Assembly: GCA_963836285.1 (NCBI GenBank)
Contig: CAWIIN010000002.1
Coordinates: 1,650,386 to 1,714,385, forward strand
Direction of reading: 5' to 3'
Source: an uncultured Acidobacteriota bacterium
GTDB lineage: Bacteria > Acidobacteriota > Thermoanaerobaculia > UBA5066
Length of the DNA: 64,000 nt
In this document: piece by piece, positions 29,160 to 31,492 of the stretch
Layout: each line of letters opens with the position of its first letter
Position numbering within the stretch: position 1 is the first letter of the stretch
Program-made: the position numbers and the translations under genes
Notes under the pieces: generated by a model
Seen by the model: only the letters and a program-made list of their open reading frames with translations
Database searches by the model: none
What the model was told of the DNA's origin: nothing

Positions 29160-30041
29160 CTAGCTCGACGATCGCCGCGGAGAGTTCCACTTGCGCCTGG
29201 ACGATTTCTGCGACTCCATCCATTGCCGCGAGAAGTCCGACGTGAAGACATTGTGTTTCCAGTTCTTGGCGGGGAAGACGAGCATCTTGTGAAGGCGAAG
29301 CGAGAGGCTCGCGAGGCGGTTGACGAGGTCGTAGAGAGGCGCCTTCTTCGCGTCGTGCTTCGGTGCATTCGGGCACCAGGGGACCTTCTTCGTCTTCTTC
29401 AGCTTGTTGTAGATCTCGTTCAGCGCCTTGAGCACGATCTTGTTGTTGTAGTCCTCGTGTGCGTCGTGGAACTGGTGCCCGGAACTCTCGATCGCGGCCG
29501 ATGCGTACGACAGCGGGTCGTCCACGCCGAAGTACTCGGTCAGTCCCCCGCCTTTCGTTCCCCAGAGCGAGCCCTTCTTCTTCGGGTCCGGCTTTATCGT
29601 GCTGAACGCGTAGTTCCCGGGCAGCCAGACTCCGTTCACCGCGTTGTTGACGTCGTAGCCGACGTTTCCCTTGGCCTTGCCTTTGACCTTGATGCCGATT
29701 TCGTCGTCCTTGAAGAGCTTGCTCTTCTGGAGGGACCCGTTGCCCGGAATGATGTGGTGCGCAGCGAAGCAGACCGGCAGGGACACCGGGAGGTCCTCTC
29801 CTTCGATCCAGAGCTCGTCGGGCTCGGTCGTCTTGCAGTTCGTGCCGAGCTTGCCGGAGTCGTTCTTGTGCTTGAGGCCTTTGCCGTCGGCGACGACGCC
29901 CACGTGGGCGTCCTCGTCGAAGTCGTCGTCGCAGTCGTTGTCCCGCTCCTCGATCTCCTCCTTGTAGTTGCAGAAGTAGCAGTCCTCGTCGTGCCGGTCG
30001 ATCAGAATCTCAACGTTGACGAGCTCGCCGAAGTCCGTCAT
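29160..30041 (-). CDS. AHH-family HNH/EndoVII-fold nuclease toxin (T6SS/polymorphic-toxin effector)
   Basis: AAHHIIPGNGS AHH motif with a downstream HxxH. Lys-rich, with GC about 12 points below the window average. Sits between the PAAR-like and immunity genes. Confidence 0.75.
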   Translation of the reverse strand: MTDFGELVNVEILIDRHDEDCYFCNYKEEIEERDNDCDDDFDEDAHVGVVADGKGLKHKNDSGKLGTNCKTTEPDELWIEGEDLPVSLPVCFAAHHIIPGNGSLQKSKLFKDDEIGIKVKGKAKGNVGYDVNNAVNGVWLPGNYAFSTIKPDPKKKGSLWGTKGGGLTEYFGVDDPLSYASAAIESSGHQFHDAHEDYNNKIVLKALNEIYNKLKKTKKVPWCPNAPKHDAKKAPLYDLVNRLASLSLRLHKMLVFPAKNWKHNVFTSDFSRQWMESQKSSRRKWNSPRRSSS

Positions 30042-30045
30042 CCGG

Positions 30046-30432
30046 TCACCCCATGATGTTCTTCTTGTTGTGGAAGAGCGGGTCGCCCATCCGGCAGACG
30101 TTGTTTCCCTCGAACTTCACGTCGAACGAGTACAGCATGAACTCGCAGAAGCTCATGTTGACGCTCGAGAGAATGCCGCCGGCGACGCCGGCCTCGTCGC
30201 CCGAGGAGCGCGAGTACTGCGCCCCCTTGACCATCGGCATCTGGCCGTCCGTCGTGACGGTGTTCGGCCCCTGTGACGTGTCTGACGACATCCCGATGTT
30301 CGGGTAGGGGATCGGCACCGGGCTCGGCGCCGGGGGCGCCGGCGTCTTGCAGACGTCCGGGAAGACGATGGAAAACCCGTTGCTCTGCTTGTGGACGACC
30401 CCTCGGAAATTCGCGAACGTCGCCTGACTCAT
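30046..30432 (-). CDS. DUF4150 PAAR-like domain protein
   Basis: FPDVCKTP...PIPYPN motif pair characteristic of DUF4150. ATG 30432 preceded by GGGAGGG. Stop TGA is 4 nt from the toxin ATG in a different frame. Confidence 0.75.
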   Translation of the reverse strand: MSQATFANFRGVVHKQSNGFSIVFPDVCKTPAPPAPSPVPIPYPNIGMSSDTSQGPNTVTTDGQMPMVKGAQYSRSSGDEAGVAGGILSSVNMSFCEFMLYSFDVKFEGNNVCRMGDPLFHNKKNIMG

Positions 30433-30436
30433 TTCG

Positions 30437-31492
30437 TCAGTTCCCTCCCGCCGCAAGAAGGGAAAGAGACGCCCGTTGTCCGAGGTCGGACGAGGCGTAG
30501 ACGAGAGCGGGCCCCCGGGCCGCGTCCAGGCTCGCGAGTCCCGCGAGGAGCGCGCCCGCGGCGGCTCCGGTGTCGCCGTAGCAGTCGGCCGGGTGGTTCA
30601 TCACGTGGGGTTCCGCGAACGCGTCGCGCGAGCGGAGGAGGGCGACACCCCATTCCTTCGCCCAGTGGCTCTCGCCGTTCATGGACGACCAGACGGAGAC
30701 GAAGGGTCGCGGCGGCGGCGCGGATGCGACGAGGGACTGGATCGTGGCGGCGAGACCCTCGCCCTTGTACGTCTCCTTGCTCCCGAGGTGGCCCTTCTCG
30801 AAGCCCTCGACCGCGTCGGACAGGAGCGCCAGGCTCGTCAGGCCTGCCGCGGAGGCAGCGCGCGGGCTCGCGAGGAGAAGGAAAGCAGCGCCCTCGCCAG
30901 GGATGAAGCCGTCCAGATGGGCGCCGGTCTTCACGCGCTTCTCGAGGTCGAGCGTCCCGAGCGTGTAGAGGTCGACGTAGGTGTCGATCCCCCCTGCGAG
31001 GGCGAACGACGCGCCGCCACGCACGAGCGCAGCCGCGCGGCCCACGGCGGAAAGTCCGCCGGCCCGCCCGCTCGTGACCGTCGAGCTGGCCGCGAGGTCG
31101 AAGACGCCCTTCGCCTGCTTCTCGAGGAGCTTCAGCAGCCGTCCCGCGTCGAGAGGACGCTGTCTCTCGGGCTCCGGCAGCGCGAGGACGAGCGGCGGCC
31201 TTGCGGCAAGGCGGGGGGTGCCGACGCATTCCGTCAGCGCCCTCGCCCCGAGCCGGAGGAGGCGGGCGTCCCGGACGGTGAGCCCCGGTGTCTTGGCGAT
31301 CCCGGGCGAGAGCTCGGGAAGCCCCGCGTCCGGGACGGACGCGACGGTGAAGGGCTCGAAGCGGCGGTCCAGCCAGTCGATTCGTGCGAAGCGCATCGTC
31401 GCCGACCGGATCGAGGCCGCCGTCTCGGCGGTCGAGAGGCCCACAGCCGTGACCATTCCCACCCGCGCGACGACGACGTCGGTGGCGGCCAC
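30437..31492 (-). CDS. Thiolase-fold beta-ketoacyl-synthase-like protein lacking catalytic Cys/His (probably inactive)
   Basis: KS-like blocks (DGFIPGEGAAFLLL ~ DGFVMGEGAGVLVLE; GDTGAAAGALLAGLA ~ GHLLGAAGAVEA), but Ser/Thr at the nucleophile position (SSTVTSGRAGG) and no His-His pair. GTG start at 31492, 9 nt after the DUF2169 stop. Confidence 0.55.
   Translation of the reverse strand: MAATDVVVARVGMVTAVGLSTAETAASIRSATMRFARIDWLDRRFEPFTVASVPDAGLPELSPGIAKTPGLTVRDARLLRLGARALTECVGTPRLAARPPLVLALPEPERQRPLDAGRLLKLLEKQAKGVFDLAASSTVTSGRAGGLSAVGRAAALVRGGASFALAGGIDTYVDLYTLGTLDLEKRVKTGAHLDGFIPGEGAAFLLLASPRAASAAGLTSLALLSDAVEGFEKGHLGSKETYKGEGLAATIQSLVASAPPPRPFVSVWSSMNGESHWAKEWGVALLRSRDAFAEPHVMNHPADCYGDTGAAAGALLAGLASLDAARGPALVYASSDLGQRASLSLLAAGGN

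Follow-up and report, generated by a model that had tools for sequence, protein, structure and literature searches.

The finding of a small, PAAR-like spike tip gene followed after only four nucleotides (nt) by a nuclease toxin gene in a different reading frame raises a simple question, namely whether the two open reading frames (ORFs) are a genuine pair of genes or the halves of a single toxin gene that has been broken by a frameshift. The case considered here lies in 64,000 nt of DNA from an uncultured Acidobacteriota bacterium (contig CAWIIN010000002.1, positions 1,650,386 to 1,714,385), a stretch that we call the window, and every gene of its tip-toxin-immunity set is carried on the minus strand. 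Comparison with homologous proteins and loci identifies the PIPY (DUF4150, PAAR-like) ORF and the AHH nuclease ORF as a genuine, conserved gene pair in a native two-gene arrangement, and we regard it as highly probable that this arrangement is an intact part of a Class II Tvp / synteny type A module of a type VI secretion system (T6SS), with a PIPY cone and a separate AHH cargo. The locus is an ordinary and seldom described form of a type VI secretion toxin module that is already known, and its layout recurs in dozens of species.

The PIPY spike tip gene encodes a protein of 128 amino acids (aa) and occupies positions 30432..30046 (minus strand). Its mechanically called ORF runs from a TTG start (30456..30046), and since the homologous proteins begin with MSQATF or MGQTTF, the true start is placed at the ATG at 30432. 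The PIPY stop codon (30048..30046), a spacer (30045..30042), and the start codon of the toxin gene (30041..30039) make up the junction TGA-CCGG-ATG (30048..30039, minus strand), which reads ...ATC ATG GGG TGA CCGG ATG ACG GAC... and places the AHH frame at +1 relative to the PIPY frame. An earlier description of this DNA, made from its letters alone and referred to here as the sequence-only reading, had the PIPY ORF end in TGA-CCGG-ATG with the AHH ORF starting four nt on in another frame, and the minus strand bears this out. The PIPY stop lies within GGGGTGA, a G-rich stretch resembling a Shine-Dalgarno site, and upstream of its ATG the AHH frame stays open for about 25 codons up to a stop, without an alternative start codon. 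The toxin gene (30041..29160, minus strand) encodes an AHH-family (HNH/EndoVII) nuclease effector of 293 aa with a PF14412 match above the gathering score, and the ATG of the Imm11-family immunity gene (29151..28576, minus strand; 191 aa, PF07791) follows 8 nt past the AHH stop (TAG GAGGCTGC ATG). The gap between the stop of the PRK06147-like gene and the start of PIPY is also exactly four nt (TGA CGAA ATG, 30439..30430, minus strand), so the tight spacing is the operon's own packing style.

The tip protein itself is complete. The PF13665 profile (Tox-PAAR-like, formerly DUF4150) matches it with E=1.1e-39 and 135.3 bits (cut-off 31) over profile positions 3-108 of 108, and the match ends at residue 128, which is the last residue of the protein. 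The conserved P(I/V)P(Y/F) motif of PIPY domains described by Sachar et al. 2025 (PMC11883445) is present in the context ...SPVPIPYPNIG..., with PIPY at aa 40-43, and the genomic linkage by which such proteins are recognized is found as well, with vgrG (34696..32531) and DUF2169 (32514..31501) genes on the minus strand in the same operon orientation. The best 120 of 6144 PIPY homologs are 73-95% identical to the tip protein, and all have lengths of 126-128 aa. A survey of PIPY loci, in which each species was represented by one genome, returned 80 loci (PIPY 66-95% identical), in all of which PIPY stands alone, with the ORF stop 0-3 codons past the end of the match. These loci come from at least six phyla: Acidobacteriota, Gemmatimonadota, Myxococcota (including Sorangium and Hyalangium), Gammaproteobacteria (Cellvibrio, Teredinibacter, Colwellia, Psychromonas, and Kangiella relatives), Desulfobacterota, and Verrucomicrobiota. 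The wider DUF4150 family was covered by searching representatives of 50%-identity clusters exhaustively with HMMER. At this level the stand-alone clade is reduced to about three representatives (126-127 aa), and the remaining ones (41-59% identical) are nearly all longer; within the best 150 that were examined, 131 have more than 50 aa beyond the domain and 6 are stand-alone. The expectation that DUF4150 proteins are normally fused to their toxin is therefore correct for the wider family but not for the clade of this protein, which, judging by its best 120 homologs, is a distinct, highly conserved, unfused one.

On the effector side, the PF14412 AHH match covers aa 92-218 (E=4.9e-8, 33.4 bits, cut-off 22.3). 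In an alignment of the AHH protein with 47 homologs (48 sequences, alignment A2), A93, A94, H95, and H96 of the catalytic AAHH motif (aa 93-96; 29765..29754, minus strand) are invariant, as are H192, D193, and H195, and Met1 of the effector aligns with the N-terminal Met of the 47 homologs. The best 120 of 252 AHH homologs are 205-293 aa long, with PF13665 in none of the 120. The orthologous loci L001, L002, L004, and L005 have an identical gene order, which runs VgrG, DUF2169, ketosynthase-like, PIPY (127-128 aa), AHH, immunity, a protein of ~141 aa, and a HEAT-like protein of ~412 aa; they keep the four-nt gap with toxins that are only 52-58% identical, and the aligned junction in the window, L001, L004, and L005 is TGA-C[CG]G[GTC]-[AG]TG. 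Four-nt gaps between PIPY and effector genes also occur in L016, L018, L040, and L084. In addition, the GC content (share of guanine and cytosine) at third codon positions (GC3) is 0.93 for PIPY and 0.90 for AHH, each in its own frame, which shows that each ORF is read in that frame. We conclude that the split is native because the PF13665 profile is complete at the stop codon, because the PIPY and AHH homologs are stand-alone proteins, because diverged orthologous loci retain both the gene order and the junction, and because PIPY is a gene of its own in every species-level locus surveyed. The comparison of homologous loci for fused and split forms that the sequence-only reading had suggested thus finds the split form kept in the orthologs and in all 80 PIPY loci.

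Among the close relatives, one is fused. P0244 (L088:12-1367), on a single 2.3-kb metagenome contig (JGI 3300042610), encodes a fused PIPY-AHH protein of 451 aa whose PIPY part is 63% identical. Its DNA reads GTG GGG GGA ATT GAC ATG GGG GAA, with GGA at the position of the TGA and a 6-nt in-frame spacer, and the protein continues MGEGV...CPFC...AHH, followed by an Imm11 gene. By sequence, the fused P0244 and the split forms are collinear and one substitution apart; as P0244 lies on one short contig, its fusion may be either genuine or a sequencing error. The Imm11 gene of the window, directly downstream of the toxin, matches PF07791 with E=4.9e-11 and 42.7 bits (cut-off 22.1), and Imm11 occupies the same position in L001 and L088.

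The genes on either side of the pair place it in a recognizable T6SS module. The VgrG spike protein, the presumed PIPY carrier, has the Pfam domains Phage_GPD, Phage_base_V, Gp5_trimer_C, and Gp5_C and holds the same position in the orthologous loci L001 and L002. It is followed by a single-domain DUF2169 protein (TvpA; 337 aa), which matches PF09937 (E=2.3e-95) over positions 2-294 of 294 and without a pentapeptide extension, and by a PRK06147 / thiolase-like, 3-oxoacyl-ACP-synthase-like protein (31492..30437, minus strand; 351 aa), a TvpD-type co-chaperone candidate matching NCBIfam NF004798 with E=1e-44 over positions 3-346 of 349 (153 bits, below the equivalog cut-off of 342). The immunity gene is followed by that of a TvpC-like protein (28545..28108, minus strand; 145 aa), whose C-terminus resembles the VgrG C-terminal tip: its last 75 residues are 31% identical to VgrG aa 628-721 (32531-32815; BLASTP pairwise E=1e-6), and both proteins terminate in KG-x-x-VS-[LM]-N. 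A DUF6484 assignment of this ORF was rejected, because the Pfam comparison found no DUF6484 match and only a weak DUF3540 match (E=0.045); the position of the gene is conserved in L001 and L004. The set closes with a TIGR02270 / HEAT-armadillo-like accessory protein (28088..26850, minus strand), which has a TIGR02270 match with E=6.3e-41 (141 bits, below the cut-off of 207) and a weak HEAT_2 match.

As the DUF2169, PRK06147, and TIGR02270 matches and the VgrG-tip mimic fit the published synteny type A, defined by Sachar et al. 2025 (PMC11883445), and Class II Tvp, defined by Monlezun et al. 2026 (PMC13373197), we assign the locus on these similarities to a "Class II Tvp / synteny type A" T6SS module made up of VgrG, DUF2169, PRK06147, PIPY, effector, immunity, TvpC-like, and TIGR02270. 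It has a single-domain DUF2169 downstream of vgrG, PRK06147 between DUF2169 and the PAAR-like gene, and TIGR02270. It departs from the Class II trait of a PAAR-like protein with a specialized effector domain, in that its PIPY protein is a single domain of 128 aa with a separate effector; that trait is a generalization in PMC13373197 and not a formal criterion of Class II. Some caution is imposed by the scores of the PRK06147 and TIGR02270 assignments, which lie below the NCBI curated cut-offs, by the TvpC-like assignment, which stems from one pairwise match and a sub-threshold Pfam match, and by the derivation of nuclease activity and immunity from family membership, all of which count against the module and its proposed functions.

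In published Class II systems, the DUF4150 PIPY cone has DUF2169 (TvpA) and PRK06147 (TvpD) as its chaperones, and the small VgrG mimic TvpC templates the pre-complex (PMC11883445, PMC13373197). The Class II effectors that have been studied, namely Tse7 of Pseudomonas aeruginosa, PefE of Proteus mirabilis, and VP1415 of Vibrio parahaemolyticus, are fused to PIPY, and the 2026 classification ties Class II to PAAR proteins bearing effector domains (PMC13373197). The split arrangement as such is already of a known kind. DUF4150 is found either by itself, in single-domain proteins, or as the N-terminal domain of a toxin (Sachar et al., PMC11883445), and in Agrobacterium 1D1609 separate effector genes follow v2b, with V2a being a fused DUF4150-AHH nuclease (PMC6971182). 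Liu et al. 2020 found 64.5% of the effectors in the two genes downstream of PRK06147 to be fused to PAAR, which leaves about a third unfused, and according to Zhang et al. 2021 the gene immediately downstream encodes 10% of PAAR-linked toxins. The module resembles the P. aeruginosa H1-T6SS VgrG1b cluster PA0095-PA0101 with Tse7, which shares VgrG, DUF2169, PRK06147, PIPY, an HNH/EndoVII toxin, immunity, a small VgrG mimic, and an armadillo-like protein (PMC13373197, PMC11883445); Tse7, however, carries PIPY and Tox-GHH2 on one polypeptide, whereas here there are two genes and the toxin is AHH, and the TvpC-like gene lies downstream of immunity rather than beside vgrG and lacks a DUF6484 match. 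Domain order, DUF2169 dependence, and a downstream immunity gene are shared with V2a of A. tumefaciens 1D1609 (522 aa, nuclease activity shown; PMC6971182) and with VP1415, but both of these are covalently fused, and V2a belongs to a Class I module without PRK06147, TvpC, and TIGR02270. A small PIPY protein without an effector domain is also found in Paar1 of Serratia marcescens, in TagD of Burkholderia (Class III Tvp), and in v2b of 1D1609 (PMC13373197, PMC13584744, PMC6971182), and v2b likewise has its effector in a separate downstream gene; these, in contrast to the Class II accessory set seen here, are Class III (DUF2169-pentapeptide fusion, DUF3540) or Class I. The departures from textbook examples are modest: an unfused effector, and an exchangeable cassette that begins at the stop codon of the tip gene.

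If the module works as its homologs do, the 128-aa PIPY protein would be a stand-alone cone capping the adjacent VgrG, chaperoned by DUF2169 (TvpA) and the TvpD-like PRK06147 protein, possibly on the TvpC-like VgrG mimic. The AHH nuclease would be a separate cargo, probably translationally coupled across the four-nt spacer, and would be delivered with the spike, while Imm11 would protect the producer. What, then, might take the place of the covalent link? We hypothesize that the effector N-terminus M-T-D-F-G-E-L-V probably does so, as a recruitment handle to the PIPY/Tvp complex, and a noncovalent tip-toxin link would make the effector-immunity pair swappable behind an almost invariant tip gene. 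This shared N-terminal motif is the one new lead that the locus offers, as a hypothesis, and short N-terminal elements of this general sort have precedents: MIX, FIX, RIX, and PIX are short conserved N-terminal elements on polymorphic T6SS effectors with unrelated toxin domains, and the orphan PAAR4-TseT-TecT system provides a cargo effector that depends on a PAAR-type tip and a chaperone. Unlike the former, the motif described here has about eight residues, lies at the very N-terminus, is tied to stand-alone PIPY/PRK06147 modules, and is known from sequence.

The candidate handle, MTDFGELV (30041..30018, minus strand), has the general form M-x-x-φ-G-E-x-φ, and its E6 is invariant in the 48 AHH sequences. 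Effectors encoded behind PIPY begin with MTDFGELV in the window, MTDMGEGI in L008 (383 aa, no Pfam match), MEIGESVS in L053 (477 aa, with HEVGH and a weak Reprolysin_2 match), MTQIGEAA in L049 (483 aa), and MTQLGESV in Sorangium; carriers of the motif include L008:6401, L026:4081, L049:8797, L053:4357, L085:3636, and L022:6403. The L049 protein (L049:8797-10248, 483 aa) contains FFDGTLNN, which we take to resemble a DUF2235/Tle1-type lipase signature. A search of all ORFs of at least 150 aa, in six frames of the non-redundant related loci, with the pattern ^M-x(1,2)-[IFMLV]-G-E-x-[IVLA] gave 43 matches among 1243 ORFs, of which 40 are plus-strand genes downstream of PIPY and about two look like chance. 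The 40 genes lie 3 nt to 2.6 kb downstream of PIPY, some of them past intervening PRK06147 or TIGR02270 genes, and of 1320 candidate starts in the 64-kb window, that of the AHH ORF alone matches the motif. Most carriers belong to the AHH superfamily, some being recognizable by the xHH motif alone, and the AHH-type carriers have in common, besides the motif, a knuckle of the form H/C-x2-C around aa 17-24 as well as a Cys or CxxC close to the C-terminal end; the only element common to AHH and non-AHH effectors is the first ~8 residues. No description of the motif was found in the literature searched for N-terminal markers tied to stand-alone DUF4150, PRK06147, and TIGR02270.

A second line of evidence comes from an orphan module in Teredinibacter haidensis (L006:5865-8451, CP060084.1), in which a PRK06147-like gene is directly followed by an AHH effector (MTELIEGV...) and then by a gene of 191 aa, and whose upstream 7 kb contain no gene for PIPY, VgrG, or DUF2169. 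The PRK06147-like protein of the window is 36% identical to its counterpart there (E=2e-60). The ketosynthase-like gene here travels with the effector and not with the tip, which accords with PRK06147 as the effector's nearest partner. Since the motif occurs in 40 post-PIPY genes of AHH and non-AHH families against about two chance matches, since PRK06147 accompanies an AHH homolog in a module without PIPY, and since the fused P0244 is collinear with the split pair, we tentatively propose, at a confidence somewhat short of even, that M-x-x-φ-G-E-x-φ acts in trans as a loading signal that has not been described before. Such a signal would mark out a class of polymorphic T6SS cargo effectors that are recruited to stand-alone PIPY tips via PRK06147 (TvpD)/DUF2169, in place of the covalent Tse7-type link, in at least six phyla. 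The members of this class may include AHH nucleases, a protein resembling metallopeptidases, possibly a Tle1-like lipase, and families whose function is unknown.

Several results weigh against this proposal. The link between effector and PIPY is a hypothesis, and an AlphaFold2 monomer model of the fused P0244 did not dock the motif on PIPY in cis: the PIPY domain is confident, with a final strand AVGGID (123-128), and the predicted local distance difference test (pLDDT) score falls below 50 from residue 134, five residues into the motif. The AlphaFold2 model of the AHH protein is likewise confident over its core (aa 62-290), but pLDDT is only ~54 across aa 1-30 and drops below 50 in the acidic linker (aa 40-61). 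A position matrix built from the N-termini of split effectors and run on the post-domain linkers of the 131 fused relatives found 15 of the 131 where 4.4 would be expected, and its scores did not exceed those on reversed sequences. Many fused relatives carry, by eye, linkers of the L-A-G-E-L-Q-A-P type. With so weak a matrix, general homology between the split N-terminal motif and the fused linkers is not claimed; the claim is limited to collinearity with P0244.

The most serious alternative to the proposed handle is that PIPY is purely a structural tip and that the AHH protein is loaded elsewhere, on the VgrG shaft, by a TIGR02270 or PRK06147 adaptor, or with Hcp, so that the motif would serve folding, a zinc knuckle, or stability. 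The missing contact between motif and PIPY in the model and the orphan PRK06147-effector module without an adjacent PIPY speak for it, as does the H17-x3-C21-x2-C24 knuckle of the effector (29993..29970, minus strand), which is invariant in alignment A2 together with C223. A CxxC lies close to each end of more distant AHH effectors, and H17, C21, C24, and C223 suggest a possible structural zinc site that would clamp the N-terminal segment to the C-terminal helices and tie the N-terminal region into the toxin fold. The first eight residues, however, are also present in effectors without the Cys knuckle and the AHH fold (L008, L009, L011, L026, L049, L053, L085), and the motif is confined to genes of PIPY modules, on which grounds we consider loading elsewhere rather unlikely.

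The effector-immunity pair behaves as a unit when related genomes are compared. Four loci from related Acidobacteriota (L008, L009, L011, and L014) share ~79% nucleotide identity with the window from vgrG to the PIPY stop; this identity is lost at 30041-30050 and picks up again at ~28270-28370, within the 145-aa gene, and between these points the four loci carry a different effector, a protein of 361-383 aa. From the break at the PIPY stop and the resumption in the 145-aa gene it follows that the effector-immunity pair is an exchangeable cassette, which starts at the stop codon of the tip gene. Whether this exchange is also recorded in base composition is another matter. The sequence-only reading had described both the toxin and the immunity gene as markedly low in GC and had taken this as a sign of horizontal acquisition. 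The first part is accurate for the AHH gene, whose GC of 0.602 makes it the lowest 882-nt stretch of the window (mean 0.691, standard deviation 0.034), but not for the Imm11 gene, which at 0.665 is not markedly low; the PIPY gene stands at 0.630. The deficit in the AHH gene lies in the first and second codon positions (0.55 and 0.36), a consequence of the protein's high content of Lys, Asn, Asp, and Glu, and GC3 (AHH 0.90, PIPY 0.93, Imm11 0.875) is in line with the 0.81-0.90 of the flanking genes. A recent import of the pair from a donor of lower GC, for which the composition minimum at AHH and the variation of the cassette between related genomes could be cited, is thus quite improbable: GC3 of AHH and Imm11 equals that of the neighbors, Imm11 is near average in GC, a further low-GC stretch of the window sits over an Hcp ORF identified by eye, and AHH orthologs of the same family occur at the same site in related metagenome-assembled genomes. 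With host-like GC3, the compositional evidence for horizontal transfer is rejected, and the idea of exchange survives on the nucleotide comparison instead.

The further low-GC stretch lies at ~49,500-50,250 (GC ~0.60). Two adjacent Hcp-like ORFs were read by eye in this region, at 49751-50236 (161 aa) and 50459-50941 (160 aa), both on the minus strand and sharing MAVVD-x-FLKIDG..., and the first of these coincides with the stretch.

Turning to the junction itself, programmed recoding, in which a +1 frameshift or read-through at GGG-TGA would yield some fused PIPY-AHH protein, could draw on the G-rich, Shine-Dalgarno-like context of the stop, on the +1 frame being open through the junction (...W-G-D-R-M-T-D...), and on the natural in-frame fusion P0244, from which a fusion would appear to be structurally tolerated. 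A survey of the 31 loci with an effector directly after the PIPY gene gives it very little room, since their spacers range from 3 to 113 nt, each of TGA, TAA, and TAG serves as the stop codon in some of them, and every one of the three frame offsets is represented; the longer spacers hold additional in-frame stops and their own GGAG sites, and no conserved slippery or stimulatory element was seen across the 31 junctions. Recoding is rejected on this lack of a consistent frame, stop codon, or spacer. Of the two options that the sequence-only reading had left open, the split pair stands, and the frameshifted fusion, a single DUF4150-AHH gene broken by a 1-nt indel (pseudogenizing mutation or assembly error), has next to no probability left and is ruled out by the conservation of the split across homologs and orthologous loci, for although most of the wider DUF4150 family is fused, fused DUF4150-AHH effectors such as Agrobacterium V2a and VP1415 are known, and the removal of one base from the TGA would merge both frames, the stop comes after the final position of the PF13665 profile, the effector Met1 is aligned with that of its homologs, the junction is conserved among diverged orthologs, both families are stand-alone throughout, and GC3 is high in each ORF's own frame.

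For annotation, this means that PIPY and AHH should be kept as separate genes, neither merged nor flagged as a pseudogene. Class II-type Tvp modules in which the tip is not fused to the toxin form a large group that spans phyla, and this locus is one of them; the unfused layout rationalizes a near-invariant tip gene (66-95% protein identity across phyla) with a hypervariable effector-immunity cassette behind it. Should the handle be real, it would provide a cheap marker with which to look for new effectors in phyla that have been little studied, among them Acidobacteriota, Gemmatimonadota, and Myxococcota.

Upstream of the module lies a second spike set, also on the minus strand, which contains a VgrG of 902 aa that carries a Peptidase_M91 effector domain at its C-terminus (35983-38691), a 199-aa ORF without family matches (35321-35920), and a canonical PAAR-motif protein of 181 aa (34751-35296); given this PAAR protein, the cluster encodes both PAAR-tipped and PIPY-tipped spikes.

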